This document shows positions 491-57,280 of a stretch of DNA of 64,000 nt, piece after piece (the stretch's first letter is position 1; each line of letters starts with the position of its first letter). The position numbers were made by a program, and so were the translations under genes. This DNA is from Eubacteriales bacterium (GTDB lineage Bacteria > Bacillota > Clostridia > Oscillospirales > CAG-272). The DNA lies in NCBI GenBank assembly GCA_045613985.1, contig JAZLCA010000072.1:747-64746 (forward strand), read 5' to 3'. The notes beneath the pieces were generated by a model. It was given only the letters and a program-made list of their open reading frames with translations, made no database searches and had not been told where the DNA came from.

Positions 491-3400
491 ATGAAATTCT
501 CACGTTACTGGAAGCAAGCGCTTTGCCTTCTTTTGAGCTTGACATCTTGCTTTGCCTTTTGTGCTTGCAGACCTGACCAACCGCCGGTCGGCCCCGAGGA
601 CCCGGCAGGCCCCCAAGATCCTGTAGATCCCGGAACCCCTGATGAGCCTAACCCAGAAAATCCTGATCAACCCGGAGATAAGGAGGATCCCCCTTTGTAT
701 ACTACACCGATTTCCGAAGTCATCGTCACGTCGGGCAGTGACCGTCTGGCAGTAAATTTCTGCCGTGAAGATCTGGTCCACTTCCGCTATGCCCCCGACG
801 GCGAAGAATTTGTGCCCGAGGGTTCCGTCCCCGAGTCCATCGCCAAGTTTGACGGCGATTATGCAGAAGTTTGCGGTGAGATCGAAGAGACGAGCGACAA
901 AATCATCATTCGCACCGAGATCCTGACCGTTACCGTTGACAAGGCCACGCTCGGCGTTGCCATCAGCGACCTTGAAGGCAACGACATTTTCAAGAGTGCC
1001 GCTGACGCTTTCTCGGCCGATGGCCAGGGAAAAACGGCCAACTTCACTCGCGACGTAGCAACGACGGAGCATTTCTTTGGTCTGGGTAACGCCAAGGGTG
1101 ACTCCTTTACCACCACCGATCACCGCAACACCGTTTACGATCTGTGGATGCATGACGACAACGTCCATGCGATCGTTCCTTTGTGGTACAGCACCTCCGG
1201 CTACGGTATTTACGTCAATAACTCTAACCGCGGAAGCATTTCCTTCAAGAACAACTATTCGCTGTCCTTGGAAGGCGGAGAGATGAGTTTCTACTTCCTG
1301 TACGGCCCTGATTTCAAAACCATCCTGACCAACTGGTCCGAGTTGGCCGGCCGTATGGCAATGCCTCCTCTTTATGCACTGGGTCTTACCTATCGCGGCT
1401 TCAGCAGCTGGACCGAGGATCAGCTGCGCGATGCGATCACCGCTCAGTTTGAGGCCGGTATTTCGATCGACATCGCAGGCGTTGAGCCCGGTTGGCAGAC
1501 AAAGACCTATCCCTGCAGCTATGCCTGGAACACCAAGTTTACCACTGATCCTGCAGCCTTTGTCAAGAGCATGCATGATCTGGGCTTGCACGTCAATCTT
1601 TGGGAGCATCCTTACGTGTCTCCCGAGTCGGCCATTTACAGTGACATTCTGAAGTACTCCCTGCCCGGCAGTATCATCGGTACCCGTGACTGGGAGGGCC
1701 GCGGCGGCAACTACGCCTTTGGCGGCATCGTTCCTGACCTGACCATCCAAGAGGCTCGCGATCTTTACTGGAGCATCCACAACCAGAACCAGGTCTCCAT
1801 TGGCATTGACGGCTTCAAGATCGACGAGACCGACTCCTGGGGCGCCAACAACAGCCTCGACCTCCTCTTCCCCGGTGGACTTTCCAACAACGCTTACCAC
1901 AATCTGCTCGGTACGCTGACCGTCAACCTGATGCATGAAAAGTACCGCGATGAGTACAATCTGCGCTCCTTTATGTACAGCCGCGGCAACTATTCCGGTA
2001 TGCAGCGTTTTGCCACCTCGGCTTATACCGACTACTACGGCTTTGACCAGTTTGTCATGTCTGTCATCGCTCAATCTTACTCCGGTACCTACTACACCCC
2101 TGAGATCCGCGACACCAGCACCAAGAGCGACATCTCCTATATGCGTCGCGCACAGCTGATGTTCCTGACGCCCTTTGCCATGTCCAACGAGTATGCAACC
2201 GAGGCGACCGTTCTGATCCGCAGCCAGGCCGTCATCGATTGCTACAAGAAATACAATCAGCTGCACTACGAGCTGATCCCCTACATGTACAGCCTGTTCT
2301 GGCAGCAGCACAACACGGGCGTGGGTGTTACCCGCTCGCTGTTGATGGAATTCCAGGACGATCCCAACGTTTACAAGATCGACAGTCAGTTCATGCTGGG
2401 TGAGTCTCTTATGGTTTGCCCTGTGAGCAGCACCGGTCGCATCGCTACGGTGAAGATCTATCTCCCCGCAGGCGAACTTTGGATGGACTTCAACACCGGT
2501 TATATCTATAATGGCGGTCAGACCATTGAGTACACCTGCTCTGCCAGCACGCTTCCTTTGTTCGTCCGCATGGGCGCTATCATTCCCCAGGGCCACTACG
2601 GCAACAACACGGCAGACGTGACCGATACCACCTTGACGTTGGATATTTATCCTTCTTCTCAGAAGACAAGCTTCCTGCTGTACGAGGATGACGGCGCAAC
2701 CTTCAATTATGAGAAGGGCGAATACGCCGAGACGCTCATCACCACGCAGTACAAGGATAACACCATTCAGTGCACCGTCGGCGCGCGCAACGGCAAGTAT
2801 ACCGTCGATACCCGCGCTTGTGTCCTGGAGATCCACTACCGTGCTCTGCCCTCCGCTGTGACGCTGGACGGCACGGCCATCTCCGCCGTTACCTCTCTGG
2901 AGGCCTTCAACAAGGCAACCACTCCCTGCTACTATTACGATGCTACCGCTGAAAACGACATCGACAAGATCATCTACGTCCGCCTGACCGATGACGGTAA
3001 GGAGCACAACGTACTTGTCACCGTCGGTGCACAAAGCGAACAGCAGCCTCCCGAAATCATAATCGAAGGCACGCTGTACGAGTGCGAGGCTCCCAACAAT
3101 ACTCTCATCGGTGCTAAGGCTTCCTTCAAGGAGGGCGCATCGGCCAAGTCCATCGTTTCTTCCTTGGGTAACAACGGTAAGAACTCCCTGACCATGAACA
3201 ATATCACGGTCGCCAAGAGTGGCACCTACGACGTTGAGATCGTATTCTACAATGGTCAAGAAGACACCCGTATGCTGTATATCAGCGCCAACGGCGGCGA
3301 GGCTATTCCCGTTTACTGCTTCGGCAATAAGAACTGGAACGAGCCCCTGTCCCTCACCATTCCCATGCAGCTGAACGAGGGTAACAACTCCATTTCCTTC

Positions 3401-6506: not shown

Positions 6507-7068
6507 ATAACTCCTCCTTCCATCGAGACAGCATCATACGTCGGGCTCGCGTCAGGCGCATCCGAACGTTGCCTTCGGAAATATGCAACATTCGCGAAAT
6601 CTGAGATGTGCTAAGCTGCATATAGTAGAAATAATACAATACGTCGCTGTAAATGTCATCCAGGGAGTTGACCATATCCATCAATCTTTGACGATTTTCC
6701 CGGCGGACAAACAATTCATCCACCCGCCCGTCATCATCGGCAATGTCCCAATGCTCCTCTGCTTCCGGGTAAACCTCCCGGTAGCGGCTTTTGGCAGTCT
6801 TTCGGTAATGATCGATGGCAATATTACGGCAGATACGAAACAGCATATTCTTTTGATGAATTTCGCTTGCCGCGCGAAAGGTATCCAGGTGATCGATCAG
6901 CGCGATCATCACATCCTGAACACAATCCTCCGCATCGTGATGATTTTTCACGATACCGTATGCAATCTTATACAGTTTTAGTTTGTTGTTCTCGTAGACT
7001 TGCGTAATGTAAGCACGGTCGCGCTCATCTTCGAGGCTATCTTCGATGGTCATCAGAAATAAAAGCAC
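6487..7068 (-). CDS. RNA polymerase sigma-70 family (ECF-type) sigma factor
   Basis: 193 aa. Region 2-like DAEDCVQDVMIALIDHL and region 4 HTH LSTSQISRMLHISEGNVRMRLTRAR. GTG start 5 nt after AAGGAG. Translationally coupled to the downstream anti-sigma gene. Confidence 0.85.
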   Translation of the reverse strand: MLLFLMTIEDSLEDERDRAYITQVYENNKLKLYKIAYGIVKNHHDAEDCVQDVMIALIDHLDTFRAASEIHQKNMLFRICRNIAIDHYRKTAKSRYREVYPEAEEHWDIADDDGRVDELFVRRENRQRLMDMVNSLDDIYSDVLYYFYYMQLSTSQISRMLHISEGNVRMRLTRARRMMLSRWKEELYELRSK

Positions 7069-7238
7069 AGTAACTCCTTTGATTTATCAGGGCGTATTGT
7101 CAAGCCAGCAGGGGCTTCACAGAGATATACGAACGACACGGGGAAAATGCAACAACTTTTTTATATTTTTTGTATCAAGCAAGGGGGACTGAAAACAGTC
7201 CCCCGCTCAAATTCATATCGTGATCAAATCATCTTCGA

Positions 7239-15615: not shown

Positions 15616-15674
15616 GTAGACTGTATAGATTTATCCGTCCGTCACCTTGGGTGCGGATGAAAAAGGAGTTTCGC

Positions 15675-16430
15675 ATGTCCGACTGGAATGAGTTGGATCA
15701 AGAGGCGACCGAGTTCCCTCAAGATCCGGAGACACAAAATATTACAGATGATCCTGCCGCTCCGCCCCGGGATGACGAAGATGCGTCTTTGACCGAGGAT
15801 AACGGTGGCGAGGAAAAAAAGAAATTTTCCCTTGGCACTTTGCTGCTCGAATACGTCGAGCTGTTTGTCACCTGCCTTGGTGTCGTTTTGATCATTTTTT
15901 CCATGATCTTCCGCATATGTACCGTATCGGGAGATTCCATGCTCCCTACCTTGAGGGACGGTGAGCTTTTGCTCATAAGCAATCTGTTCTACGAGCCGGA
16001 GTCGGGAGATATCATCATCTTCCACCAAACCAGCGAAACGCATGAACGCTTTAACGAGCCTATCGTCAAACGCGTCATCGCCACCGAGGGACAGCGAGTT
16101 TACATTGATTTTACGCTCGGCACCATCGAGGTTGACGGCATCGTCCTGCAAGAAGATTATATTCAGTTGGTCAATTCTCTGGGCTATCAAACGGGAGAGT
16201 ACACTTTGTTTGCCGAACACAATTTCCAAATGGTTCCTTCTCCGCAAGGCACGACTCACCGCATTTTTGAAGCCACCGTTCCCAAGGGTTGTCTGTTCGT
16301 CATGGGCGACAACCGCAACAATTCCGCCGACAGCCGCACCAAAGTCATCAGCTTCGTAGACGAACGCCGTGTGCTGGGACAGGTCTTGTTCCGCGTTGGC
16401 GAAGACGGCGATTTCAAGCCGGTCAATTAA
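15675..16430 (+). CDS. lepB: Signal peptidase I (bacterial Ser-Lys type, S26A)
   Basis: SGDSMLPTLRDGELLLI (Ser box), KRVIATEGQ (Lys box), VMGDNRNNSADSR. Start set at ATG 15675, 6 nt after AAGGAG (15663-15668). Confidence 0.9.
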   Translation: MSDWNELDQEATEFPQDPETQNITDDPAAPPRDDEDASLTEDNGGEEKKKFSLGTLLLEYVELFVTCLGVVLIIFSMIFRICTVSGDSMLPTLRDGELLLISNLFYEPESGDIIIFHQTSETHERFNEPIVKRVIATEGQRVYIDFTLGTIEVDGIVLQEDYIQLVNSLGYQTGEYTLFAEHNFQMVPSPQGTTHRIFEATVPKGCLFVMGDNRNNSADSRTKVISFVDERRVLGQVLFRVGEDGDFKPVN

Positions 16431-45957: not shown

Positions 45958-45998
45958 CAAAAGGACAGACGATCCAAGATCGTCTGTCCTCGTTTTTT
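45958..45998. terminator. Bidirectional terminator between the GH36-like gene and the giant adhesin gene
   Basis: 13-bp stem AGGACAGACGATC (45962-45974) / GATCGTCTGTCCT (45978-45990), then CGTTTTTT; ACAAAA lies upstream. Confidence 0.8.
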
Positions 45999-46006
45999 AA
46001 GGATAT

Positions 46007-49000
46007 TTAGTTTTGCGTGCTGTAAGCGTTGTCGGTGATGTAATAAGAATTCGTCTCTTCAGTTGTTCCCGCAACGTCAGGGCCGGGGATTGAATAACTG
46101 AAATTCATGATTTCAGTTCCATCGAAGGTGAATTCCCAAACAAAACTCTCATCCACAACCTTGTTGAGCGTCTGTGCGGGGCTTTCCAAAGCCACCGAAG
46201 AAACATCATCGGTGTATCTCCACGACCAAGCACTCTCGAGCGTAACAGTATAATCGCCAACAGGAAGGCCAAGAATAGTCTGACCATCGCCGCCCCAGCT
46301 GACCACAGCTACACGAACGTCCACGCCTACCGTAGCAGAGCTCGAAACACCTTGAATACGATAAATAAAACCTTGATCCCAAATATCCAATGCAGGGTTC
46401 GGGTTTATTCCGCCAGTGTTCAGCTGATTCTTTATCGTCAAGCTGGTGGGGACGAATTTGGCGTAGAAGGTGACCTCCTTGGTAGCCCAGGCCGTCAAGG
46501 CCTTCGGCTGAATATAGCCATCACTAACATCGGCTTGGCTGCTATCGACCTTTTTGTAAGTGGATGTTGTACTGTCGTACATATACCAACCTTCGAAAAT
46601 ATACCCCTTCGCCGGAGTAGGTGTAGATCCTTTAGCCGTACTGCCTAAATTAACATCCTCGTTATATCGATCCAAAGTACCCGTTCCTATATCCATAACC
46701 TGATACTTGAAATAGATCGTCTGGTAAGCATAATAGAAGTAGAACGTATAATCATCACTTACAATAGACTTCGTTTGCGATTCGCCGCTGATGGTAGTGT
46801 ATACGTCTTTATCGATTTTTACGGTATTAGTTGCATTCTCGTTCTCACCATAAGCATTTACCTTTTTCGTTTCGCCATATTTAACCTGATTAAACATCTC
46901 CGTTTCGGTAGTACCATTCGGTAGAATGTGCTCTACTTTGTAGGAGACATATTTTCTCGGATAATACGCCGACAAGACGAGGCCTTGAGACAATACTCCT
47001 GTAGCCGATGCCGGCACCGTACCACTAAAAGCACCACCATTTGTAGTTGTAGTGGTTTGAACAGTAGTAACATCCACAGAATAACCGTAAGACAGCTTGG
47101 ACAGCAGGTAATCTCCGGCGCTGAAGAATTGGCCAACCGTGCCCATGAGGGTAGTAATCGAATATCTCGTATACGATCCATCCAGGTTCTCGGTATAGTG
47201 GATAATATATACGTTAGCGGTCGATCCACGGTCTTCCCAGTTGAATTCGATCACGTTAGCCGCAGCATTCGTCGTCAGAATAACGTCCTTTTGGTAAGCA
47301 TCGGGAGAAAGCTTGGTGACAATTTCCCAAACCTTTCCCGCATCAGCCGTACTTGCGCCCAAGGCTTTTGCCGCTGCCACAATATTTGCCTTAGTAACAG
47401 AATCGTCAAACCGCACGGTGATTTCAGCGGAACCTTCTTTTGAAGCATAAACCTCATAGAAATACGTAAACGTGGTTGCGCCGTTCAGATAATCTGCGAA
47501 TTCCTCATTATGGAAAACGTGATTAACCGTATAAGGAATTTCCGCATTAGAGGTATCATAATGGAACGTATAGACGTTACTCTCCCCCGCGTTCATGGAA
47601 AGCTTATGCGAGCGCACCGTGGGGAAATAGCCCTTTTGATACGTAGTATCCAAATCGGGACCAACCTTGGCAAAGAACTCTTTGCTGACGCCCGCCAAGG
47701 ATTTACCCTTCATGGGAGGCGCGACGTCTTTGGTATAGTCACCGTTTGCATCCTTGGTTTTGTAGTATACCGTAAATTCAACGGGAACGTGCGACGTCCA
47801 CTTGGCATAGATCACGTAGTCCTGCTTGATGGGCATGGTGTTGAAATCAAAACGCTTCTCCTCACCATTTTCCTTGTAATACCATCCGGCAAAAATGTAT
47901 TCAGTAATAGGAGGTACCGGGTCTTTCGGTTCCTGGCCAAACAACGATGCGCCGAACAGAACTTTGTTTGCACCCGTAAGATCAAGATATTTCGTTGCGC
48001 CGGGATACTGATCGGGATCCTGCTGATAAACCTCAACGCTGAACTTATTCGTAATCCATTTAGCGTAAAGTTTTATGTTTTTGGCAGGCATCGTGATGTC
48101 AAAACTGAACGCATTTTGGCACGCCTCATCAATGTACCAGCCGCCAAACGTAGCTTCGTTTGCTTCAAATACATTGGGATAATTCGTGTTCCCAAAGTCT
48201 GCTTTTTTGTAGGCACCCGTGTTCAGCGAAGTACCGTAGGAGACACCTCTATTACCCTCATCATCTTCAAAAGAAATTTGTTTACCATTGTTATCGTCGT
48301 AGACGAGATTGTATTTCTGTCGCGTATAGAAATAATTCATAACGACTGCGGCTTTATACGTCTTTCCCGTGCCGACCATATTAGAAATGGCAGTTGCTTC
48401 GGCAGTAGTTACTCCTAAATTATTAGTAGTACTATCTGCTTCAGTATCATTGTATGATCCTGCAACATGATAGGAAAACGATGCACTTTCATTTTTATCA
48501 TATCCCACAATTGCTGGATGTGTTTGCTTGCCAGCGGTTGAGTCATCACATGTGTCATAGCAATCTGCTAAATAATAATCAATCTTGTTGTCGTTATTGG
48601 TATCAAGAACTGCAGTATAAGTGAAGCCATTGATCGTCTTCGTCGTGGGATATGTTACTCCGTCTAAAACAGGCAACCAAATTTTATATCGGTATAGTTC
48701 AGGTATACTCCAATCGATATTTGCACCGCCCTCCCAAAAGCAAGCATATGTTACCGTTGTATCTGTGACGGATGTATCATTCCAAAGCAAGTTCTCATCC
48801 AGCTCTGTATAATTACCTTTGATAGTTTGGTTTCCTTTGTTTACAGTGGTATCCGAAGTATATTTAACGCGAGATTCTCCGTTCCAAGCGCTCACCAACG
48901 CTTTACCACCGGACCAATACTGATTGGTAAAATTAATGTCAGCCGCATTAAACACTCCGCACGGCCACAAGTTACTGATATCGGCTCCATATCTTGCATT

Positions 49001-51199
49001 AAAAGATATATAATGATACCGATAGTTACCATCCGGATCATAACCTGTATTATACGAACGTGATTGCCCTACGGCATTCAATGTTGGCAATGCTTTGACC
49101 GTACCTGTTCGACCTGCCCAATCACCGCTAGCATATTGCCGCATTAGCAATATTTCATCATTTCGATATTCCCAAGATGCATCAGTTCCAAACCCATACG
49201 TAGAACCACCAATTATATGGTACGTTGATGCTTGCGTGTTTTGGATTGCATAATAGAATTTCAACGTGTATTGCTTTCTCGAATAATACACATTAATAAC
49301 CGTAGTACCATCACCCGCAACTATTTTGGTCGCAGTATCTGACAAAGCAGACATATACGTGAGGTACGGATACAGAGAGTTAACGTCCGTTACTTCACCC
49401 GTAGTAAAGCCATTTGTCGTTGTAATAAATCTTTTTACACTATCCGTACTTGCATTTGCATCTGTAGCATCGCCTGTCTGCGCAGACTTATTAACGGTGT
49501 ACCATATATCGTAATTGGTCTTATTGGAGGAATCCGCACTGTCTGTGTTCTCCAGCCAATACGCAATGGTATAGGAGGTCGAAGCCTTCTCCCAATTTGC
49601 CTTATACTTCAGATTGTGATGCACGCGGACGGATTCGCCCGCCTGATCAAAAGACGCGTATTCGTTCCACGTGGTAGTCGTGTTAGAAATCTGAGTCTTG
49701 TTCTCATCGGTCACATCCTGCAATGACCAGCCGGTAAATTTATAACCCGGGGCCGTCGGTATTCCCTGCATAACCGTCGTATCGTAGCGTACGTATGCGG
49801 GCATGATACCGTAACCATCAACACCAAGCATCGTATCCTGCAGATCGTACTCGACAAGATAATATAAACGGTCGTAATACAGCTCAACCTCGGTGATTTC
49901 ACCGCCGCTGATCAAGGTCTTGGGGTCATAATACAGCGCTTCAAAGCCTGTTCTTCCGAGCGCCAAATTTTCGCCAACCATAGCCTCGGTATATCCCGGC
50001 ACACTTCGGGTATCTACCAAGGTGTAGCCGTCATCCAATAGATTTTGCTCGTAGATCAGTACAAGGAAGTACACCTGCTGTGGGATATAGTATACTGTGA
50101 CCTCTGTGTTAGTTGTTACACCGCTGAACGACACCGTATTGGCAGGGGAATACATCTTTCCGTCATACTTAATTGCACCATTCACACCCTCTGTAGCGGA
50201 GGGATCCTCCTGATACGGCAAATAACCGGGAACGGGGGGAGAAGTAATAGTACCGGTAAAGGACTGGCCGGCAGATGTATCTAGCGTAGCAGTAAACGAA
50301 CCGGCAGCAGTAGAACCGTCGACAGTTGCGTTATCTGCATGACGGAAAACGTAGTTAACAACGACATGAAACGCATCGGAAACAGCTCGAGACGTAGACC
50401 CACTCCTCGCATACTTCCCTGCGGGAATGCTTTCAGTTGTCTCCTCCGTCGGTTGTATGACCACAGGCGGCTCATCAGGAGCTACACTCGTATCCACGTT
50501 CAATGTCATCTCGCCGCTGACGTAACCGATTCCGTCCTTGGTGGCGACGCAGCGGATGGTGGCCGTGCCCGTTTCGTCGCACGCGTTGGCGATCAAAGCC
50601 TCGGAAATAGCCGCGTAGGGATAGTAATAATCGAGAATGTTAGCCCAGCGGTTATTCTCTTTGTCAATGAGCATTTGCCACTGATATCTTGCCGCGTCGC
50701 CAACCGCGCTGCCAAGCTCGGTAAAGACATAGGTCTTCTCGCCCGGCTCGATGACCAGCTCGCTGACAGTTTCGCCGTCCATAACAAGGCCGACCTGGCC
50801 CTCGATATAGCCTTCCTCGTTCTCGGGAGGCGCTGGCGGCGCAACGATCTCTACGTTGTAATTTTCTGTCCAGCAGTGCGTATTCAATACCGCATGCGAT
50901 GAGCCGTCAACAGTACCAAGCTTATAATAAACTTTGGTTGTCGAACCCCATGCCTTTGTTTCTACATCCAGAATCACAAGTATTTCAGGAAGCTGTGTCT
51001 TCTCACATCCCATAGCATACGATCCGGCTTCTCGATACATATAAATCATATCGTTGACAATTCGAACCGTTGAGCCGATAACACTCTCGGCATCATCCTC
51101 TGCCACGACATATATATTGACAGGAATAATGGTAAAAATCATTACAAGCGCCATGATCAGCGTCACTGCCCTTTTTCCCATTCCATTCATTTTTCTCAT
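46007..51199 (-). CDS. Giant secreted repeat protein (~1,730 aa): MucBP-like and Listeria-Bacteroides (Flg_new) repeats, C-terminal Cna-B/prealbumin-like module, no recognisable anchor
   Basis: AGGAGG 7 nt upstream of ATG 51199. Sec signal KRAVTLIMALVMIFTIIPVNIYVVA. Repeats FTGWSL.., FGGWYIDEAC..IKLYAKW, FAGWYYKENG..VIYAKW, FEGWYMYDST..TFYAKF. C-terminal LTIKNQ...GLPVGDYTVTLESAWSWRY. No LPXTG, TM, SLH or choline-binding repeats. Confidence 0.8.
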   Translation of the reverse strand: MRKMNGMGKRAVTLIMALVMIFTIIPVNIYVVAEDDAESVIGSTVRIVNDMIYMYREAGSYAMGCEKTQLPEILVILDVETKAWGSTTKVYYKLGTVDGSSHAVLNTHCWTENYNVEIVAPPAPPENEEGYIEGQVGLVMDGETVSELVIEPGEKTYVFTELGSAVGDAARYQWQMLIDKENNRWANILDYYYPYAAISEALIANACDETGTATIRCVATKDGIGYVSGEMTLNVDTSVAPDEPPVVIQPTEETTESIPAGKYARSGSTSRAVSDAFHVVVNYVFRHADNATVDGSTAAGSFTATLDTSAGQSFTGTITSPPVPGYLPYQEDPSATEGVNGAIKYDGKMYSPANTVSFSGVTTNTEVTVYYIPQQVYFLVLIYEQNLLDDGYTLVDTRSVPGYTEAMVGENLALGRTGFEALYYDPKTLISGGEITEVELYYDRLYYLVEYDLQDTMLGVDGYGIMPAYVRYDTTVMQGIPTAPGYKFTGWSLQDVTDENKTQISNTTTTWNEYASFDQAGESVRVHHNLKYKANWEKASTSYTIAYWLENTDSADSSNKTNYDIWYTVNKSAQTGDATDANASTDSVKRFITTTNGFTTGEVTDVNSLYPYLTYMSALSDTATKIVAGDGTTVINVYYSRKQYTLKFYYAIQNTQASTYHIIGGSTYGFGTDASWEYRNDEILLMRQYASGDWAGRTGTVKALPTLNAVGQSRSYNTGYDPDGNYRYHYISFNARYGADISNLWPCGVFNAADINFTNQYWSGGKALVSAWNGESRVKYTSDTTVNKGNQTIKGNYTELDENLLWNDTSVTDTTVTYACFWEGGANIDWSIPELYRYKIWLPVLDGVTYPTTKTINGFTYTAVLDTNNDNKIDYYLADCYDTCDDSTAGKQTHPAIVGYDKNESASFSYHVAGSYNDTEADSTTNNLGVTTAEATAISNMVGTGKTYKAAVVMNYFYTRQKYNLVYDDNNGKQISFEDDEGNRGVSYGTSLNTGAYKKADFGNTNYPNVFEANEATFGGWYIDEACQNAFSFDITMPAKNIKLYAKWITNKFSVEVYQQDPDQYPGATKYLDLTGANKVLFGASLFGQEPKDPVPPITEYIFAGWYYKENGEEKRFDFNTMPIKQDYVIYAKWTSHVPVEFTVYYKTKDANGDYTKDVAPPMKGKSLAGVSKEFFAKVGPDLDTTYQKGYFPTVRSHKLSMNAGESNVYTFHYDTSNAEIPYTVNHVFHNEEFADYLNGATTFTYFYEVYASKEGSAEITVRFDDSVTKANIVAAAKALGASTADAGKVWEIVTKLSPDAYQKDVILTTNAAANVIEFNWEDRGSTANVYIIHYTENLDGSYTRYSITTLMGTVGQFFSAGDYLLSKLSYGYSVDVTTVQTTTTTNGGAFSGTVPASATGVLSQGLVLSAYYPRKYVSYKVEHILPNGTTETEMFNQVKYGETKKVNAYGENENATNTVKIDKDVYTTISGESQTKSIVSDDYTFYFYYAYQTIYFKYQVMDIGTGTLDRYNEDVNLGSTAKGSTPTPAKGYIFEGWYMYDSTTSTYKKVDSSQADVSDGYIQPKALTAWATKEVTFYAKFVPTSLTIKNQLNTGGINPNPALDIWDQGFIYRIQGVSSSATVGVDVRVAVVSWGGDGQTILGLPVGDYTVTLESAWSWRYTDDVSSVALESPAQTLNKVVDESFVWEFTFDGTEIMNFSYSIPGPDVAGTTEETNSYYITDNAYSTQN

Positions 51200-51312
51200 T
51201 TGCAGTCCTCCTATACTCGACATTGAAGCGAAACTGCCTTATTTTAGCAAGCACAACTCGGAAATTGCGCTAAAATATCAATGCTTAAGAATTTACAGTT
51301 TAAAAAACATCT

Positions 51313-51334
51313 GGGAAATTCGTAGGAATTTCCC
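51313..51334 (-). terminator. Weak hairpin/attenuator between minor-subunit genes and the giant gene
   Basis: GGGAAATT (51313-51320) / AATTTCCC (51327-51334). On the minus strand it is followed by AGATGTTTTTT. Confidence 0.35.
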
Positions 51335-51356
51335 GGATATTTTATTTACTTCATAG

Positions 51357-51923
51357 TTAGGGTAACTTCTTCCAGTTACCATCTTTAAACGCGGCGCCCC
51401 AAGCGGTTTCAACCGCATCTTCAGGCACGCATTGAATTGCCTCAGCAAGAATCTGAACATTCAGTTCATATTCTTCGCTGGGAGGGGTAGATCCTGTCGT
51501 TACCATAATACCGCTAAGTACGGTTCCAACGGCAATTTGAGCACTACCATCTTTAACACCGTAGTAGTAACCGTCGCTCAACTGCGTTGCATTTGGTACA
51601 TTATACGACACGGCACTCGGATTGATATACCAAAGAGTTCCATCCGTTTTATGCTTCCAATTCACAACGATCGCGAAGCGAATATACGCGGGGATTCTGC
51701 TCTCGGCGGTGTGCCGTATGGAGTACGTACCGTCATGATTATCAACGACCTCAATACTAATTTGGCCCTCACCGGAAATATCCATCGAAACGTCTGTGTC
51801 AATATCCTTGACGTATTTGGCGTATACCGCACTGGCAACCGCACAAGAGATCACGCAAACAAGCAACAGAAGCAGCGGCAGTCTATCTTTGATATACATC
51901 AGAAGGCGTTTTCTTTTCGTCAT
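51357..51923 (-). CDS. SipW-cognate-signal exported protein, TasA/camelysin-like (minor subunit candidate B)
   Basis: 188 aa. N-terminal TM ending ..ASAVYAKYVKDID; IPAYIRFAIVVNW; terminal strand YELNVQILAEAIQ. The RBS AAGGAGG overlaps the stop of the upstream gene. Confidence 0.7.
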   Translation of the reverse strand: MTKRKRLLMYIKDRLPLLLLLVCVISCAVASAVYAKYVKDIDTDVSMDISGEGQISIEVVDNHDGTYSIRHTAESRIPAYIRFAIVVNWKHKTDGTLWYINPSAVSYNVPNATQLSDGYYYGVKDGSAQIAVGTVLSGIMVTTGSTPPSEEYELNVQILAEAIQCVPEDAVETAWGAAFKDGNWKKLP

Positions 51924-51934
51924 GTTGTGCCTCC

Positions 51935-52477
51935 TTAATCAATCTGCTCAACGTGGATGCGAAGTGTGGCCGGCTCGGTGATCTGTATGATCTCGCCGGG
52001 CATGGCACCCGAGGTTATTGTGAATGTAAGCGTATGCTCATCTTCCCTCGTACCGGTAGCACCAAAAGCACCTCCGTCGAAGGTAATCGTTTTTGTATCG
52101 GTATTTATGTCCTTCGGTAGACTATCTCCCAGTTTAATAGTCATCAGATCGTCCTTTACCCACTGCGTCATCTTTCCGGGAAGCACAAGAATAACATCAT
52201 ACTTCACCGCGACCTCGCTTGTGGAGACTACGACGAATTGGATCGAGTCCTGGCGCTTACCCGGATCAAAGAAATCCAATTCAATCTTCATTGGAACCGC
52301 GTCGACCTGCTGATAAGCCACGTCGAACTTTGCAACTCTGGCATCATCCGAGCCTTCGGCTCTGGAGATGAAGCGAGCGTACAGACCGCCTGTCATATGG
52401 GTACTGAACAGGACCAGCACAAGCATCACCAGACCGACGTAAAAGATAGGCGGTGTTCTTTTATTCGATTTTGCCAT
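51935..52477 (-). CDS. SipW-cognate-signal exported protein, TasA/camelysin-like (minor subunit candidate A)
   Basis: 180 aa. Signal ..HMTGGLYARFISRAEGSDDARVAKFDV (compare ARVAKWGF in the 205-aa protein), VKYDVILVL, terminal strand ATLRIHVEQID. Confidence 0.7.
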   Translation of the reverse strand: MAKSNKRTPPIFYVGLVMLVLVLFSTHMTGGLYARFISRAEGSDDARVAKFDVAYQQVDAVPMKIELDFFDPGKRQDSIQFVVVSTSEVAVKYDVILVLPGKMTQWVKDDLMTIKLGDSLPKDINTDTKTITFDGGAFGATGTREDEHTLTFTITSGAMPGEIIQITEPATLRIHVEQID

Positions 52478-52500
52478 AAAAGAACACCACCTTTCATATT

Positions 52501-53070
52501 TTATTCGTTCGTGTCGTTGTTCTTGGTTTGTTGCTTTAGTTTTTCAATTTCCCGCCGGATTTCTTCCAGTTGATCGTTATCCTTTTGCTTTTCCTTGTGG
52601 AAAGAACGCTCAAGCAGCCAGATGGCCGCCGCAAGAATAACAATAGTTCCGATGGGGGTTTTAATCAGATTGACAAGATAGCCTACCAGCGGAATATCGA
52701 ACACCAGCGCACCCTTGATCTGATCAAGGCTGATCGGGTCGTCGGGCGTGTTATTCGCATCGCCTTGTGTGACGATGCCCTCCTCGTCCATCGCAATGAT
52801 ACGGTGAACGACAGCGGTACGTCCGTCCTGAAAAACGACGATATCTCCCACGCCGTAGCTGTCGCGCTCGGCGATAAAGAGAAGATCTCCCGTGGATAGG
52901 CGAGGTTCCATACTACCCGACAGCACCACCGTCGCTCCCACGCCAAAAGGCATGGGAACGGCGTTGCCTGCCAAGCGTGATGCATTGATCGAATAGACGT
53001 TAATTCCGACGATCAAGGAAACGATCACGAGCAGAGTGATGCGTACAATCGTTTTAATTCTTTTTTTCAA
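52501..53070 (-). CDS. sipW: ER/archaeal-type signal peptidase I (S26B, SipW-like)
   Basis: 189 aa. N-terminal TM, SGSMEPRLSTGDLLFI (Ser), TAVVHRIIAMDEEG (His; no LepB Lys box), C-terminal TM plus a ~35-aa charged tail. TTG start at 53070, with GGAG 9 nt upstream. Confidence 0.8.
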   Translation of the reverse strand: MKKRIKTIVRITLLVIVSLIVGINVYSINASRLAGNAVPMPFGVGATVVLSGSMEPRLSTGDLLFIAERDSYGVGDIVVFQDGRTAVVHRIIAMDEEGIVTQGDANNTPDDPISLDQIKGALVFDIPLVGYLVNLIKTPIGTIVILAAAIWLLERSFHKEKQKDNDQLEEIRREIEKLKQQTKNNDTNE

Positions 53071-53086
53071 GGTTTACACTCCAGCA

Positions 53087-54361
53087 TCAGCCTTTGGTAA
53101 TGATGACCTTACCGCCGGCCGCGATAATATACTTTCTTGCCTCGGCGGAAACACCCTGCGTTTCGATGATGAACTTCTTGTTCACGTTCGCGGCATTTCT
53201 TGCCAGGATCTTCATTTGCTTGGTTTCGGGTTCCATCAGGCCCTTCTGCTTCAGAATAGCCAAAGTGATCTTGTCGCCGTCCTCGAAATGCTCGGCCAAC
53301 GTGTCGATGTTGATGTAAGCCATCTTACCGACAAAGCCTTCCTTCTTGGGAGGCGCCTTAGGCTTGGGCTTAGGCTTGGGTGCAGGAGGAGGAACCACAA
53401 CTACGGGTTCAGGCTCGGGCTCGGGTACGGGAGCAGGAATCACGACTACGGGTTCAGGTTCAGGTTCAGGCTCGGGCTCGGGAGCAGGAATCGGATCCTG
53501 GATCACAGGCGGGATGACCATAGGAATCTCGGTAGGATCGGGATCAGGCAGGAGCTCAGGTGCGGGATCGGGACGATCGCCTCTATCCTTGAGCAGCGAG
53601 AAGATCAAAAGAATGATGGCTGCGAGCAAGAGAATGATGAAGATGATCCAGGGCAGATTTCTGCCGCAGGAGGTTCTCCAGAAGTCGACGGATGCATCGG
53701 GATCGGTTTCGGCGATCACGTGGAGAGAGATTTTAATGCCGACGTCCTCGCCCTCGATATTGCCAAGGAAGGTATCGTACTCGTCATCTCCCGTTTCAAA
53801 GGGCCAATTCCAGTGGAGCTTATAGTCCTTCGACTCATCAACGCCGATCGAAGCACTGTCAGATACGCCGTTGAGCTCTGCTCTGTCAGCCCATTCGGAG
53901 CCTTTGCCGGTGCCAACGATATTCTCGCTGTCGGGGCCAAGCAGCCAAAACTTCATGGGAAGCTCGTACTGGCCGATCAGCTCAGCCTTGATCGTCAGAG
54001 TATAGCGCAGAGGAAATTTCTCCTTGTTGCGCAAGCAGATGGTAAAATCGTCGGCGGTGCCGGGGGCAACCACACGGGTGCCGTCCGAGCTTTCGACGGT
54101 AATATCACCGGCTTTGTTTTTATATATAAGTGAAAACAGCTCGGTCTCTTCGTTCAGATTCGACTTCAGCATGACCTCGCGGTTGTCCTCTTTGGCGTAG
54201 CGCCCAAGGCGAATACCCAAAAGGATGATACTCAAAATGAGCAGGATTACCAAAATGACCATGGCAACCCAGAAGGTGCCGCCGACACCGAATATGGATT
54301 TTTTTTCTTTTTTCTTTTCTTTTTCAGTATCTTTTATTTCAGTATCTTTTACGTCAGACAA
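53087..54361 (-). CDS. Two-TM protein: TasA-like ectodomain + Pro-Glu/Pro-Lys linker + cytoplasmic uL15 C-terminal-domain homologue
   Basis: 424 aa, TTG start at 54361 (GGAGG 8 nt upstream). TM1 ends RLGRYAKED. The ectodomain shares VVAPGT.., HWNWPFETGDDEYDTFLGN and LHVIAETDP with the 205-aa protein. Then TM2 and a PEPEPE/PKPKPK linker. C-terminus INIDTLAEHFEDGDKITL...MKILA...GVSAEARKYIIAAGGKV. Confidence 0.75.
   Translation of the reverse strand: MSDVKDTEIKDTEKEKKKEKKSIFGVGGTFWVAMVILVILLILSIILLGIRLGRYAKEDNREVMLKSNLNEETELFSLIYKNKAGDITVESSDGTRVVAPGTADDFTICLRNKEKFPLRYTLTIKAELIGQYELPMKFWLLGPDSENIVGTGKGSEWADRAELNGVSDSASIGVDESKDYKLHWNWPFETGDDEYDTFLGNIEGEDVGIKISLHVIAETDPDASVDFWRTSCGRNLPWIIFIILLLAAIILLIFSLLKDRGDRPDPAPELLPDPDPTEIPMVIPPVIQDPIPAPEPEPEPEPEPVVVIPAPVPEPEPEPVVVVPPPAPKPKPKPKAPPKKEGFVGKMAYINIDTLAEHFEDGDKITLAILKQKGLMEPETKQMKILARNAANVNKKFIIETQGVSAEARKYIIAAGGKVIITKG
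53345..53495 (-). repeat. Imperfect tandem nucleotide repeats encoding the PE/PK linker
   Basis: Units CACAACTACGGGTTCAGGCTCGGGCTCGGGTACGGGAGCAGGAAT (53396-53440) and CACGACTACGGGTTCAGGTTCAGGTTCAGGCTCGGGCTCGGGAGCAGGAAT (53441-53491), plus GGCTTRGGCTT repeats at 53358-53380. Confidence 0.7.
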
Positions 54362-54534
54362 GAGAATTTCCTCCGTTGATGTGATGTTTCGTTTGAGCGT
54401 GTATCGTACTCATGCCTTCTCCTGTGGGAGAAGGCTCGGTAAGGCGAGTGAGAACAAGCAATTTTTCGCTTTTGGCGGCGTTTGACGCGGGTCAAACACC
54501 CTCAAAGGGGAAAAATTCGGGTAACCAATATTCA

Positions 54535-54565
54535 ACCGCCGCCCCGGCCACGACGGGACGGCGGT
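54535..54565 (-). terminator. GC-rich hairpin 48-78 nt downstream of the 205-aa subunit gene (partial terminator or stabiliser candidate)
   Basis: ACCGCCGCCCC (54535-54545) / GGGACGGCGGT (54555-54565), 10 of 11 bp. On the minus strand it is followed by TGAATATTGGTT, with no clean T-run. Confidence 0.4.
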
Positions 54566-54612
54566 GAAAAATGGCTTAAAGTACTATGTACTTAATATAA
54601 CTAATTCGTGGA

Positions 54613-55230
54613 TTAGTTGTCAAGCTGGGTAGCAACAAAGGTAAACTCAACCTGAACCTTCAGTTCGCCGTTGTTACCAAGCTCAGTATCGATAACATCC
54701 GAGCCATCCTCGAAAGCCCAACGCCAAGAAACAACGAGAGTCTTATTCTCTGCGGCAGGAAGAGTATTGGCACCGTAGGTCTTGTCGTACATGCCGTTAA
54801 TAGCTGCCTGAAGTGCAGCGAAATCACCCCAAGATGCGGGATCAGTACCGTCGCCAAGTGCCCACTCAATCTGTGCAAACAGCGTATCATTAGTATTAGC
54901 AGCAACGATGTTAACATCAGCATTGAAGGAATACTTAACTTCGGGAGCTGTCTGAGCGCTAGGAATCAATTCAATTTCATAAGTATTGGTAGTACCGGGA
55001 GCAATAACCATGTCGGTATTGTTGGAATCTACTGCACCGCCATCATACAGATCCTTAAACAGCTCAACGGTAAGCGAAGTGGTTTCGAAGCCCCACTTAG
55101 CAACACGAGCCTGGTCAGTACCGTAAGCCTCGGTAACGTACTTAGCGAACGTACCGGAGATAGCGCAGGTGGTCAGGAGAACTGCAACCAGAAGAGCGGA
55201 AGCAAGTCTCATCATTTTGTTCTTTCTCAT
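54613..55230 (-). CDS. SipW-cognate-signal exported protein, TasA/camelysin-like (major subunit candidate)
   Basis: 205 aa. Signal MRKNKMMRLASALLVAVLLTTCAISGTFA|KYVTE (compare TasA GGGTWA|AFND). ARVAKWGF, VIAPGTTNTYEIEL, SWRWAFEDGSDVIDTELGN, FTFVATQLDN. AAGGAG RBS, its own 355-nt leader and a downstream hairpin. Confidence 0.75.
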   Translation of the reverse strand: MRKNKMMRLASALLVAVLLTTCAISGTFAKYVTEAYGTDQARVAKWGFETTSLTVELFKDLYDGGAVDSNNTDMVIAPGTTNTYEIELIPSAQTAPEVKYSFNADVNIVAANTNDTLFAQIEWALGDGTDPASWGDFAALQAAINGMYDKTYGANTLPAAENKTLVVSWRWAFEDGSDVIDTELGNNGELKVQVEFTFVATQLDN

Positions 55231-55406
55231 AAGAAAAAACTCCTTTCAAATTTTTTTGCCTTGCGGCGGTTTCATTCTTCCCTGTAGTGTTATGCGGGGA
55301 GAGAATATTTGCCCGGCAATGCCGGATTTTTTTTGCGGCAACGCCGCGGCAATTTATATTCACCCCCGAAACGTGGCTTCCGAGGGAAGAATAACTGAGT
55401 TAGGGG

Positions 55407-55426
55407 ACTGTAGTAAACACTACAGT
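55407..55426. promoter_or_regulatory. Perfect 8-4-8 palindrome, candidate TetR operator upstream of the major subunit gene
   Basis: ACTGTAGT-AAAC-ACTACAGT. The 15-mer AGTAAACACTACAGT (55412-55426) recurs exactly at 57103-57117. A half-site CCTGTAGTGTTA lies at 55281-55292. Confidence 0.55.
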
Positions 55427-55476
55427 TTGGGTATAATAAAAAGCGGAGCGCTTTTTGAGAGACTGTCGAGGGAACA

Positions 55477-55507
55477 CTCGCTGTGGGAAAAAGATTCCCA
55501 CAGCGAG
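55477..55507 (-). promoter_or_regulatory. 12-bp perfect hairpin in the sipW2-to-subunit intergenic leader
   Basis: CTCGCTGTGGGA (55477-55488) / TCCCACAGCGAG (55496-55507), 7-nt loop. Confidence 0.35.
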
Positions 55508-55530
55508 AATATAATCAATAGAGGTTGATT

Positions 55531-55574
55531 GCATAAGAAAGCGCCTGCTTTCTTATGCAAATGGACGTCCATTT
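55531..55574 (-). promoter_or_regulatory. 12-bp perfect hairpin plus adjacent 16-nt palindrome just after the sipW2 stop
   Basis: GCATAAGAAAGC-GCCT-GCTTTCTTATGC (55531-55558), immediately followed by AAATGGACGTCCATTT (55559-55574). Confidence 0.35.
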
Positions 55575-55585
55575 GCGCGCTTTCC

Positions 55586-56440
55586 TTATGCCTCGGTCGT
55601 TTCCTCTGATGTCTCTTGAGTGGTTTCTTCGGGTGTTTCTTGCTTCGTTTCTTCGGGAGTCTCCTCTGCGGGAGCGGCCTGGGCTTGCTGTGCGGCTTTG
55701 AGGGCGGCCAGCTCTGCCATAAGCGCTGCGACGTCAACGTCTGCAGCAGGAGCGGGAGCAGCTGCGGCTGCTGCCTTCTCTTCCTCGGCCTTGGCTGCCT
55801 TAAGGGCTTCCAGCTCTTCCATCAGGTTCTGCATATCGTTACCCTTGCTCTTCTCGTACATTCTACGGCGCAAAATGTCATAGCCGACAAACAGCACGAT
55901 GGGAACGACAACGCAGACGATCAAGCCCGCCGTCGACTGCATGAACAGCGCGACGTGACCGGCACCGGGAATGCGGACGTCGATATACTTACCGACCAGC
56001 TTATCCATAGGAACCAGGACTCTATCTTCCGTATTGTTGTTAATACCTTTGGTGCGGAAGTACTTTTGTCCGTCCTCTTCCACGATCTCGATAACACGGT
56101 GCGTTACGATACTCGTACCGTTGCCTGCGGGGTCGAAGAAGGAGATATCGTCGCCAACGACGATCGTTTCGGGGTCGGTCTGCTGGCAGATGATGATATC
56201 GCCGCTCATAATTTCGGGCGCCATGGAGTCCGTCAGAACGATCAGAGGCATCACGCCGCCGATGCTGGGAACGTCATCTTTATTGATAAAGCTCTTGACG
56301 ATCAACGTGCAGTTGACTATCAAAATGGGAACCAGGATCACACACAACACAATGCCAATGACCGTCAGCGTCTTATGCAGTTTGGTGGCTGGTTCTTTGG
56401 ATGTGTCGGAATTGTTTTGGTTCATGATTTTTTCACTCAT
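55586..56440 (-). CDS. sipW: ER/archaeal-type signal peptidase I (SipW-like) with a ~95-aa Ala/Glu-rich C-terminal tail
   Basis: 284 aa from ATG 56440 (AAGGAG 7 nt upstream). TM1, LTDSMAPEIMSGDIIICQ (Ser), IVTHRVIEIVEEDG (His), TM2. The tail contains LMEELEALKAAKA / LMAELAALKAAQQ and an ETPEET(K/T)QET repeat. Confidence 0.8.
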   Translation of the reverse strand: MSEKIMNQNNSDTSKEPATKLHKTLTVIGIVLCVILVPILIVNCTLIVKSFINKDDVPSIGGVMPLIVLTDSMAPEIMSGDIIICQQTDPETIVVGDDISFFDPAGNGTSIVTHRVIEIVEEDGQKYFRTKGINNNTEDRVLVPMDKLVGKYIDVRIPGAGHVALFMQSTAGLIVCVVVPIVLFVGYDILRRRMYEKSKGNDMQNLMEELEALKAAKAEEEKAAAAAAPAPAADVDVAALMAELAALKAAQQAQAAPAEETPEETKQETPEETTQETSEETTEA

Positions 56441-56489
56441 GATTTTTCTCCTTGGCAATTTTAGAGGTGCTATCCGTCAGCACGGAAAT

Positions 56490-57083
56490 CTACTTGGTCC
56501 AGTCCAGATACGGCTGGAGCGCACGGTACAGCAAATCGAAAACTTTTTGCTCAAATTCAGGCGTATTTTCAATTTCCTTGCGGAGTATTTTGATCGACAT
56601 GGCAAGTATGATGTCCAAAATGTAGGTGAGCATTCGCCATACGTCTACTCCTCCCTTGAACACTCTGGAAAACCGCTCGACTACGGGGTCGTACAGGATT
56701 CTATGCTCCTGCATGGAATACTTGGTGAAATAGGGCGAGTAATAGAATTGCATATAGTACATACATCTATCCGCACCATCCAACAAGAAATGCCACACCG
56801 TATAAAACAGCTCGAAGCATCTCTCATCAATACCGCGGCTCTCGTCGCGCATGCCGTCAAGATTGCTCGCAATCAAGTATAACAATTCCCTATCCAACAT
56901 GGAAAATGTTTTTACTAACAGGTCTTCTTTGTTTTCAAACAGGCGGTAAATATATGCTTCGTTGACGTTAGCCCTTGTTGCCAATTCCTTTGTAGTCGCT
57001 TTGTCAAGACCGTAATTGGCGGTCACATACACCGCAGCGTTCTGCAACGTTAAACGCAGCTCATTCTTTTTTTGCTCTGTCAT
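56490..57083 (-). CDS. TetR/AcrR-family transcriptional regulator
   Basis: 197 aa. N-terminal HTH ..YGLDKATTKELATRANVNEAYIYRLFENKEDLL. It is the first gene of the co-oriented locus. Confidence 0.85.
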   Translation of the reverse strand: MTEQKKNELRLTLQNAAVYVTANYGLDKATTKELATRANVNEAYIYRLFENKEDLLVKTFSMLDRELLYLIASNLDGMRDESRGIDERCFELFYTVWHFLLDGADRCMYYMQFYYSPYFTKYSMQEHRILYDPVVERFSRVFKGGVDVWRMLTYILDIILAMSIKILRKEIENTPEFEQKVFDLLYRALQPYLDWTK

Positions 57084-57097
57084 AATCTCTTTCCTGC

Positions 57098-57117
57098 TTT
57101 GAAGTAAACACTACAGT
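57098..57117. promoter_or_regulatory. Imperfect copy of the palindromic operator in the TetR promoter/5'UTR
   Basis: TTTGAAGT-AAAC-ACTACAGT, 15-35 nt upstream of the TetR ATG (57083). A further degenerate copy AAGTAAACACT lies at 57132-57142. Confidence 0.5.
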
Positions 57118-57280
57118 CAAAACTTAAAATCAAGTAAACACTTTCGTGCTTACCTACCGTATTTCAGGCTGTAAAGCCAAGACTATGGCTATTTGATTGG
57201 GCTCTGAACGGGACAACAAAAGGACGTATTCGGTGAATACACACCCTATTTATATCACTTTTCCTTTGTTTTGTCAATAG

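Follow-up and report, generated by a model that had tools for sequence, protein, structure and literature searches.

A conserved clostridial gene cassette that probably encodes a membrane-anchored, strand-complemented surface fibre with a giant candidate tip adhesin

A block of eight genes was analyzed in a window of 64,000 nucleotides (nt) of DNA from an Eubacteriales bacterium (assembly GCA_045613985.1, contig JAZLCA010000072.1); the window is the whole stretch under analysis, and positions are counted from its first letter. The block probably encodes a membrane-anchored, strand-complemented fibre of the TasA/Tafi type, dependent on Sec and on signal peptidases but independent of sortase, with a giant adhesin at its tip. 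In the order of the coding strand, the genes specify a TetR-family regulator, a signal peptidase (peptidase A), a candidate major subunit of 205 amino acids (aa), a 424-aa paralogue of that subunit with two transmembrane segments, a second signal peptidase (peptidase B), two candidate minor subunits of 180 and 188 aa, and a giant secreted protein. An earlier reading, made from the letters and translations alone and referred to here as the sequence-only reading, had placed eight co-oriented open reading frames (ORFs) on the minus strand at 46007-57083 and had quoted a series of motifs from them. All eight ORFs were confirmed at these positions, and all of the quoted motifs were found in the sequence. 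The roles that had been proposed, namely a major subunit, a membrane-bound paralogue, minor subunits and a giant adhesin, fit the data described below.

Conservation was assessed by a scan of one genome per species, in which at least 247 species genomes were found to encode a relative of the major subunit, and 80 loci were fetched for neighbourhood comparison. The earlier expectation that the gene neighbourhood would be conserved in relatives was borne out, since a fixed core order of peptidase A, major subunit, two-transmembrane paralogue, peptidase B and minor subunit was found in about 60 loci. The 180-aa gene follows peptidase B in nearly all loci, and in 44 of the 47 loci that have enough sequence the minor subunit is followed downstream by a giant ORF (900 aa or more); across the cassettes the giant proteins are 1,400-2,300 aa long. 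By label, the carriers of the 80 loci are mostly gut and rumen Clostridia (Oscillospiraceae, Lachnospiraceae, Acutalibacteraceae, Christensenella, Blautia and others), and their hosts are represented by human, ruminant and other animal guts. One locus comes from an isolate, Blautia sp. MSJ-19. Two loci are labelled outside the Clostridia, as Phocaeicola dorei and as an Eggerthellaceae metagenome-assembled genome (MAG); the Eggerthellaceae label, which belongs to locus L066, is probably a binning error. Among relatives with identical gene order, the closest is an Oscillospiraceae MAG (L075). Sequenced plasmids yielded no homologue, and broad literature searches returned no prior description of this clostridial cassette.

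The four small proteins of the locus (205, 424, 180 and 188 aa) are acidic beta-sandwich proteins and true paralogues as judged by profile comparison. Using hhalign, the family of the 205-aa protein was matched to that of the 424-aa protein (99.7%, E 1e-26) and to that of the 180-aa protein (99.7%, E 4e-26), and the 180-aa family was matched in turn to the 424-aa family (97.8%) and to the 188-aa family (95.2%, E 3e-8). The hidden Markov model (HMM) of the 205-aa family matches the 424-aa protein at 2e-17, and the HMM of the 180-aa family matches the 188-aa protein at 3.5e-4. Taken together, the family HMMs connect all four small proteins in the window, where no further copy was detected. The sequence-only reading had regarded the four as related; this holds at the profile level (95-99.7%), but BLAST detects no similarity between the 188-aa protein and the remaining three, to which it is linked by profiles only.

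A hydrophobic segment followed by A-[KR]-Y is nearly invariant in three of the four families. The sequence C-A-I-S-G-T-F-A-K-Y is present in 89 of 92 major subunits and G-L-Y-A-[RK]-Y in 53 of 59 minor subunits, and an A-K-Y signal end occurs also in the subclade to which the 188-aa protein of the window belongs (SAVYAKY) and in the type-B adapters described below. The predicted mature N-termini KY, RF and KY all carry an aromatic residue at +2. When ORFs were searched for a hydrophobic segment with [AGS][KR][YF], the combination was found in 169/552 ORFs inside the cassettes versus 10/909 outside, a 28-fold enrichment. The RLGRYAKED motif that had been assigned to the 424-aa protein is present in the window but is not family-wide, a like motif being found in only 14 of 80 relatives. 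No twin-arginine motif was seen on reading the N-regions of the window proteins.

The major-subunit family comprises at least 4,747 clusters at 90% identity, and among 120 listed members there was neither a Pfam domain nor an informative name. In the 205-aa protein, a signal segment (aa 1-29) ending in ISGTFA is followed by the predicted mature N-terminus KY...D.ARVAKWGF; the putative donor strand (aa 30-55, nt 55066-55143) precedes an acidic beta-sandwich that ends in FTFVATQLD. The mature protein has an isoelectric point (pI) of 4.05 and an Asp+Glu content of 15%. In the family alignment the N-terminus is nearly invariant (MKKNxMMRxASALLVAVLLTTCAISGTFAKY, next D-x-ARVAKWGF), and conservation extends to APGT, to W-x-W...DT-x-LGN and to the last strand, T-A-T-Q-x-D. 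Lipoprotein processing at the conserved Cys of the signal segment was considered and rejected, because the residues ahead of the Cys (L-T-T) form no lipobox.

The AlphaFold2 (AF2) model of the major subunit has a predicted local distance difference test (pLDDT) value of 74.6 overall and of just 42-56 for residues 21-70, so that the monomer model is least confident over aa 30-48, where the mature protein is best conserved. A Foldseek search of this model gave as its top PDB match the TasA fibre 8aur (E 2.7e-4, probability 0.96), with a template modelling (TM) score of 0.33 and a root-mean-square deviation (rmsd) of 16.7. Ranks 2-5 were occupied by the CS20, FimG, PapK and FimF pilins, and the best PDB matches of the major subunit are all strand-complemented fibre subunits.

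The 424-aa protein begins with a charged N-terminus and a first transmembrane segment (aa 22-50), continues with an ectodomain (aa 55-232) that is homologous to the major subunit, and crosses the membrane again at aa 238-257; a Pro/Glu-rich linker (PEPEPEP, KPKPKP) and a uL15-like domain (aa 350-420, nt 53102-53314) follow. Two hydrophobic segments were found in 59 of 79 relatives. The C-terminal domain is, by sequence comparison, clearly homologous to that of ribosomal uL15, matching PF00828 at 46.4 bits (cut-off 21.5) and L15 chains in the PDB at E 9e-8; from the positive-inside rule we infer that it is cytoplasmic. It is present in 22 of the 79 relatives, and the Pfam threshold was passed in three further orthologues. 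The ARVAKW segment is missing from most two-transmembrane relatives, in which the first transmembrane segment is followed either by a short conserved stretch or by a long low-complexity linker, and a paralogue of this kind would fit a terminal subunit that accepts a strand and does not donate one. Assignment of the protein to DUF5305 (PF17231-type) was rejected at the sequence level, as none of 8 family members gave a match even at E <= 10. A 45-nt tandem repeat (window 53373-53458; 1.9 copies, 85% matches) encodes the Pro/Glu/Val-rich linker, the length of which is probably variable.

Both peptidases are of the ER (endoplasmic reticulum)/archaeal type and not of the LepB type, as had been proposed and as profile scores and catalytic residues indicate. 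Peptidase A scored 91.7 bits and peptidase B 89.2 bits against TIGR02228 (cut-off 51.85), and Ser and His are invariant in 77/77 relatives of peptidase A and in 74/74 of peptidase B. Against the SipW equivalog NF046067 the scores were 93.2 and 75.8 bits, both under the cut-off of 190, so that neither peptidase qualifies as an orthologue of Bacillus SipW. The LepB-type peptidase of the window, located at 15651-16430 (+), contains SGDSMLPT, the Lys box KRVIA and GDNRNNSADSR; because it carries the Lys box whereas the locus peptidases have His in its place and are Ser/His enzymes, the contrast that had been drawn between the two types is correct. The catalytic boxes given earlier were all present, but their assignment had been swapped: TDSMAP and THRV belong to the 290-aa protein, and SGSMEP and VHRI to the 189-aa protein.

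Peptidase A is built of an N-terminal transmembrane segment, a catalytic domain, a C-terminal transmembrane segment and an Ala/Glu/Lys-rich tail. Its Ser78 and His120 are invariant in the 77 orthologues; at residue 139 it has Ile instead of the first Asp of the GDxNNxxD box, a position occupied by Asp in 44 of the 77. In peptidase B, in which the third box reads GDANNTPDD, Ser, His and both Asp residues are kept in 70-74 of 74 orthologues, and the first Asp of GDxNNxxD in 70. The two groups may therefore differ in catalytic detail. The window enzymes share 31% identity and represent separate orthologous groups, each of which is found in practically every related cassette. The peptidase B gene starts 16 nt after the two-transmembrane gene in the window, and in related loci it always follows that gene, often with an overlap. 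From the adjacency of the genes and the conserved A-[KR]-Y motif, we infer that the locus peptidases cleave the signal peptides of the neighbouring subunits.

The N-terminal region of the 180-aa protein reads TGGLYA/RF...DDARVAKFDV (a slash marks the predicted cleavage site here and below) and its last strand LRIHVEQID; in the 188-aa protein the corresponding sequences are SAVYA/KYVKDID and VQILAEAIQ. The AF2 model of the 188-aa protein has a pLDDT of 86.9 and shows a beta-sandwich preceded by an N-terminal helix. Among 1.84 billion representatives, a profile search returned 1,818 relatives of the 188-aa protein, counted as representatives at 50% identity. Orthologues encoded directly after the giant gene have a BsaA-like N-terminus, and the orthologues of this family mostly carry G-T-V-[LY]-A-Y-[ML]-F...N.F.PA.VSC and not A-[KR]-Y, a start that we take to resemble the N-terminus type of TasA and BsaA. 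TIGR04090 (BsaA) matched orthologues at E 1.5e-7 to 8e-6 (26-32 bits), the scores of orthologues spanning 17-32 bits overall, all below the cut-off of 60; it was the sole recurrent NCBIfam match of the family (5 of 10 representatives) and did not match the 188-aa protein of the window itself. The window protein falls in a small subclade of 59 clusters in which the BsaA-like N-terminus VYAYMF..T...N.F.PA.VSC is swapped for the A-K-Y type (SAVYAKYVKDID). In this subclade the gene stands before the giant gene, versus after it in L001, L004, L058 and others.

Two arrangements were seen around the giant gene: either it is followed by a gene of the 188-aa type, the start of which abuts or overlaps the giant stop codon, or it is preceded by a gene for an A-K-Y protein of 250-285 aa and unknown family, termed type B. 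The type-B adapters, encoded by ORFs of 245-285 aa immediately upstream of the giant gene, occur in about half of the related cassettes (L022-L085); they have the A-K-Y signal end and a conserved FYF.S..L motif (for example, L024 13058-13903), and no NCBIfam family matched those of the related loci. Domains of the 188-aa type were also found in larger proteins. In three proteins of 690-1,150 aa such a domain is N-terminal to Cys-rich or other unrelated C-terminal regions, and in two fusions it follows another A-K-Y domain, to which the 'F.PA.VS' strand motif links it. The fusions would fit an adapter role in which cargo is joined to the fibre. The fusion proteins are P0346, P0436, P0327, P0402 and P0451; P0418 looks chimeric, with a recombinase fragment. 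Locus L066 also carries, a few kb away from its main cassette and on the other strand, a second gene of the 188-aa type and a third archaeal-type peptidase gene, at 562-1185 (-) and 6354-7142 (-), and more than one such system may exist in some genomes.

In the giant protein, an ordinary Sec-type signal peptide is combined with a conserved C-terminal domain (FYAKF...WSWRY), which in relatives is followed by WLNGNS. Its earlier description as a repeat protein is weak as a label: four Flg_new matches were found (PF09479, 52.6 bits), but no internal repeats were detected by BLAST. Neither an LPXTG or [LIV]PxTG-like motif nor a C-terminal hydrophobic segment was found in the protein, and no sortase family was matched by HMM among the eight genes of the locus; the sequence-only reading of a sortase-independent adhesin with no anchor of its own is upheld on these grounds. 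No sequence relative of the giant protein was found in the PDB.

The following mechanism is proposed. The peptidases would cut after Ala (GTFA/KY) and free an N-terminal segment in which an aromatic residue at +2 precedes the conserved ARVAKW stretch. The freed segment would be donated as a strand to the neighbouring subunit, the beta-sandwich of which it would complete, and by this means the 205-aa protein would polymerise into a shaft. The two-transmembrane paralogue would receive the final donor strand and hold the fibre in the membrane, as has been proposed for TafF, while the 180-aa and 188-aa proteins would act as adapters between the shaft and the giant tip adhesin. Expression would be controlled by the TetR protein.

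Several results weigh against this proposal and against the kinship with TasA that it implies. No window protein matched PF12389, TIGR04088 or TIGR04090 at E <= 0.1. In hhalign comparisons with a 30-member TasA/CalY alignment, for which the TasA query sequence had been checked against PDB 8aur, the major-subunit family reached 5.3% and the 188-aa family 0.6%, neither of which is significant. The Foldseek match of the major subunit to TasA is low in quality by its TM score and rmsd, and a PDB structure search with the well-modelled 188-aa protein returned no TasA, only generic beta-sandwiches at E >= 0.03, for which reason the proteins were not filed as members of the TasA family. The subunit signal peptides also obey the ordinary SPase I (signal peptidase I) rules, with Ala at -1 and Thr/Leu/Val at -3, so that cleavage by dedicated enzymes can be suggested but not read from the signals themselves. 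Homology of the giant termini to the subunit families was considered and rejected, as no similarity was found at the N- or the C-terminus, and the attachment of the giant protein is therefore unexplained.

Membership of the subunits in the TasA/camelysin family, which had been suggested earlier, was accordingly abandoned. A Pfam scan found no PF12389 among 40 members of the major-subunit alignment, phmmer and profile searches of PDB sequences returned no match, hhalign against a single TasA sequence was not significant, and one orthologue reached 14.5 bits with TIGR04088 against a cut-off of 19. The resemblance to TasA and BsaA that had been noted is left with weak lines only: the Foldseek match at a TM score of 0.33, the sub-threshold TIGR04090 scores of orthologues, and collinear motifs, in that the non-significant hhalign alignment sets SGTFAKY on the TasA cleavage site GGTWA/AF and APGT on KPGD. 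The structural match, the TIGR04090 matches of orthologues and the adjacent ER-type peptidase point to a remote relationship to TasA and BsaA, and the subunits are probably a distinct family that works like the TasA family.

The locus was compared with characterized systems. In B. subtilis, tapA-sipW-tasA (8aur; PMC9674648) likewise includes a dedicated ER-type peptidase; the signal ends in GTWA/AF in TasA and in GTFA/KY here, with an aromatic residue at +2 in both, KPGD of TasA corresponds to APGT, and the last strands read FEATQ and FVATQ, respectively. TapA, however, is absent from this locus, and TasA fibres are TapA-nucleated matrix scaffolds without a tip adhesin or a transmembrane paralogue. 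Proteins like TasA and BsaA are widespread and very divergent, often with several paralogues in operons together with signal peptidases and surface proteins, and the donor strand of BsaA (residues 28-38) is disordered in monomer models (bioRxiv 10.1101/2024.11.04.621531), which is paralleled by the low-confidence N-terminal stretch in the model of the major subunit. The sipW-bsaA-bsaB-bsaC operon of C. perfringens resembles the present locus in being clostridial and in placing a SipW-type peptidase beside several TasA-like paralogues, and BsaA fibres are membrane-associated without a link to peptidoglycan (bioRxiv 10.1101/2024.11.04.621531; PMC7395162). Unlike the present locus, that operon has a single peptidase and lacks the two-transmembrane paralogue and the giant protein.

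In the Tafi pili of haloarchaea, TafC is the tip, TafE the adapter, TafA the core, TafF the membrane anchor, TafD an S26 peptidase and TafB the regulator; deletion of TafD blocks processing, the structure determined by cryo-electron microscopy shows strand donation, tafD and tafG occur as duplicated gene pairs, and TafF has a pilin-like outer domain that was proposed to accept the last donor strand and to anchor the fibre (PMC11821415, PMC12337348). Compared by architecture with this description, the locus likewise clusters a subunit, an adapter, a large tip, an anchor with a pilin-like domain, an S26 peptidase and a regulator. Tafi is archaeal and dependent on twin-arginine translocation, whereas this locus is bacterial and has Sec-type signals. 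The single Tafi peptidase has four transmembrane segments and an immunoglobulin-like second domain and is accompanied by a DUF5305 protein, in contrast to the two peptidases with two transmembrane segments each that are found here; tips of 1,400-2,300 aa and a possible uL15-like cytoplasmic domain on the anchor also set the locus apart.

The AbpX preprint, which treats loci of archaea and Bacillota, defines a TasA superfamily whose loci contain minor subunits, tips, anchors, signal peptidase I and DUF5305 proteins (bioRxiv 10.64898/2026.01.04.697558). Compared by that description, acidic subunits (pI ~4, ~15% Asp+Glu) in which position 2 of the donor strand is aromatic are a shared feature, as is the combination of minor subunits, tip proteins, signal peptidase I, accessory membrane proteins and anchors in one locus. 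The AbpX peptidase, in contrast, has ten transmembrane helices, and bacterial AbpX loci use S-layer homology (SLH) or LPXTG anchors and sortases, whereas the anchor here is a two-transmembrane paralogue and the peptidases have two transmembrane segments. With the chaperone-usher pili (Fim, Pap, CS20) the proposed fibre would have in common the fold class, strand complementation, and a tip adhesin, adapters and a shaft; the locus has no chaperone, usher or outer membrane, and the likeness is one of working principle and not of membership.

The sequence-only reading had named no characterized system of such composition. This statement is outdated, since Tafi pili and AbpX loci follow the same logic as the locus, likewise combining a major subunit, adapter, tip, membrane anchor, dedicated peptidase and regulator, and the claim of novelty was therefore too strong. 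The cassette is most likely not a wholly new kind of machine but a bacterial variant of the strand-swapped pili represented by TasA and Tafi. What is new here is an unnamed subunit family with the A-[KR]-Y signal, two conserved peptidases, a uL15-like anchor domain and tips of the length given above. A bolder interpretation, in which the cassette represents a separate Gram-positive pilus class common in gut Clostridia, each of two non-redundant peptidases serves a different class of substrate, and the uL15 domain docks ribosomes or ribosomal RNA so that translation and export of the subunits or of the tip adhesin take place where the fibre is assembled, is considered improbable.

Other explanations of the same gene set were weighed against the anchored fibre. 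One of them, which is possible although we judge it distinctly less probable, is that the product is a released or loose biofilm-matrix fibre, as with TasA and BsaA, that the two-transmembrane protein is an accessory of peptidase B comparable to DUF5305 (TafG), and that the giant protein is merely a co-regulated, independent adhesin. An accessory would suit the constant position of the two-transmembrane gene just upstream of peptidase B, often overlapping it, and the order of outer beta-sandwich, two transmembrane segments and cytoplasmic alpha/beta domain, which is the outline of DUF5305 proteins (bioRxiv 10.64898/2026.01.04.697558); the duplicated tafD and tafG pairs point the same way. The failure of 8 family members to match DUF5305, even at E <= 10, speaks against it, as does the clear paralogy of the ectodomain to the shaft subunit (99.7%), an arrangement found in the TafF anchor. 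As regards the adhesin, the ordinary signal peptide of the giant protein and its lack of homology to the subunits are what an independent protein would show, but its presence in 44/47 loci and the fusion elsewhere of domains of the 188-aa type to large cargo proteins argue for a connection with the fibre. It is less probable still that no polymer is formed and that the locus is an export and maturation module for monomeric surface beta-sandwich proteins and a giant adhesin, with A-[KR]-Y serving only for sorting and cleavage. The 188-aa model, which is a complete and confident beta-sandwich resembling carbohydrate-binding modules, and the absence of TasA-family HMM matches from the window proteins would agree with such a module; however, the conserved, unmodelled N-terminal stretch and the pilin-type structural matches of the major subunit are hard to explain for a monomer, a membrane-bound paralogue exists, and both the domain fusions and the resemblance to Tafi and AbpX loci point to assembly.

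A sporulation-associated appendage or coat structure, in place of a vegetative adhesin, was rated as very unlikely. The original description of TasA was as a spore coat-associated protein, and spore appendages occur in many Clostridia. TasA homologues are named 'spore coat-associated protein N' in sources, the carriers are all Clostridia apart from the two loci labelled otherwise, and spo0A and spoVA genes are found near one related locus; yet the conserved cassette includes no sporulation gene, its flanks vary between genomes, and in the window they consist of housekeeping genes. That the locus encodes a sortase-dependent or type IV pilus is contradicted already by its gene content and can be given almost no weight: the eight genes include no sortase, LPXTG protein, prepilin peptidase, assembly ATPase or platform protein, and both peptidases belong to the S26 type. 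The 188-aa model did match an archaeal type IV pilin weakly (rank 5, E 0.09), which is explained by the N-terminal helix followed by a beta-sandwich that both proteins possess.

The carrier groups are important to the degradation of fibre and to the health of the host, and little is known of how they adhere to surfaces. If the anchored fibre is confirmed, the cassette would represent a main adhesion organelle of these bacteria that operates without sortase or type IV machinery, and the tip/adapter/shaft/anchor architecture of Tafi would be extended from archaea to bacteria. It would also raise the questions of what purpose two peptidases serve, what a uL15 domain does on the anchor, and by what means a giant adhesin that lacks a pilin domain is mounted. 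The A-[KR]-Y signal provides a simple rule by which all cargo of the system could be located in metagenomes.

The features of the locus are listed in Table 1. Along the block the intergenic gaps are 31, 355, 251, 16, 23, 11 and 133 nt. The giant protein has 1,730 aa if it is begun at 51199, the start used in the sequence-only reading. The genes flanking the locus on both sides are unrelated and of the housekeeping kind, and the hairpin at 45961..45991 closes the locus, between the giant gene and a convergent gene for a 659-aa protein.

Table 1. Coordinates of the genes and non-coding features of the locus (positions in the window)
Feature	Position	Strand	Description
TetR-family regulator	56490..57083	-	First gene of block; PF00440 36.6 bits, above cut-off
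Peptidase A, 290 aa	55586..56458	-	ER/archaeal-type signal peptidase I, TIGR02228
Intergenic leader, 355 nt	55231..55585	-	Upstream of major-subunit gene; several hairpins (hairpin scan)
Major subunit candidate, 205 aa	54613..55230	-	Unnamed family, conserved N-terminus
GC-rich hairpin	54523..54576	-	~40 nt past major-subunit stop codon
Two-transmembrane paralogue, 424 aa, candidate membrane anchor	53087..54361	-	Homology to family of the 205-aa protein
Peptidase B, 189 aa	52501..53070	-	ER/archaeal-type signal peptidase I, TIGR02228
Minor subunit, 180 aa	51935..52477	-	Paralogue of family of the 205-aa protein
Minor subunit or adapter candidate, 188 aa	51357..51923	-	Paralogue by profile
Giant secreted protein, candidate tip adhesin, 1,738 aa from first ATG	46007..51223	-	
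Bidirectional terminator-like hairpin	45961..45991	.	13-14 bp stems, T-rich tails on both strands

The hairpin that follows the major-subunit gene has a folding energy of -36.7 kcal/mol (z = -4.4 versus shuffles). As it has no U-tract, a terminator function can only be suggested; it may be an attenuator that sets subunit stoichiometry by raising the ratio of the major subunit to the other components. An Rfam scan found no riboswitch or other Rfam element in the locus, the 355-nt leader included.

A TetR homologue is encoded directly upstream of peptidase A in 8 listed related loci (L013, L016, L024, L033, L045, L046, L072 and others). In the window, an imperfect inverted repeat at 57131-57156 (-), TAGGTAAGCAC-GAAA-GTGTTTACTTG, is located 48-73 nt upstream of the TetR start and may be the TetR operator; a second copy of GTGTTTACTT lies 20 nt downstream of it. 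Outside the locus, the housekeeping LepB at 15651-16430 (+) has an unusually long acidic N-terminal extension of ~60 aa ahead of its transmembrane segment.

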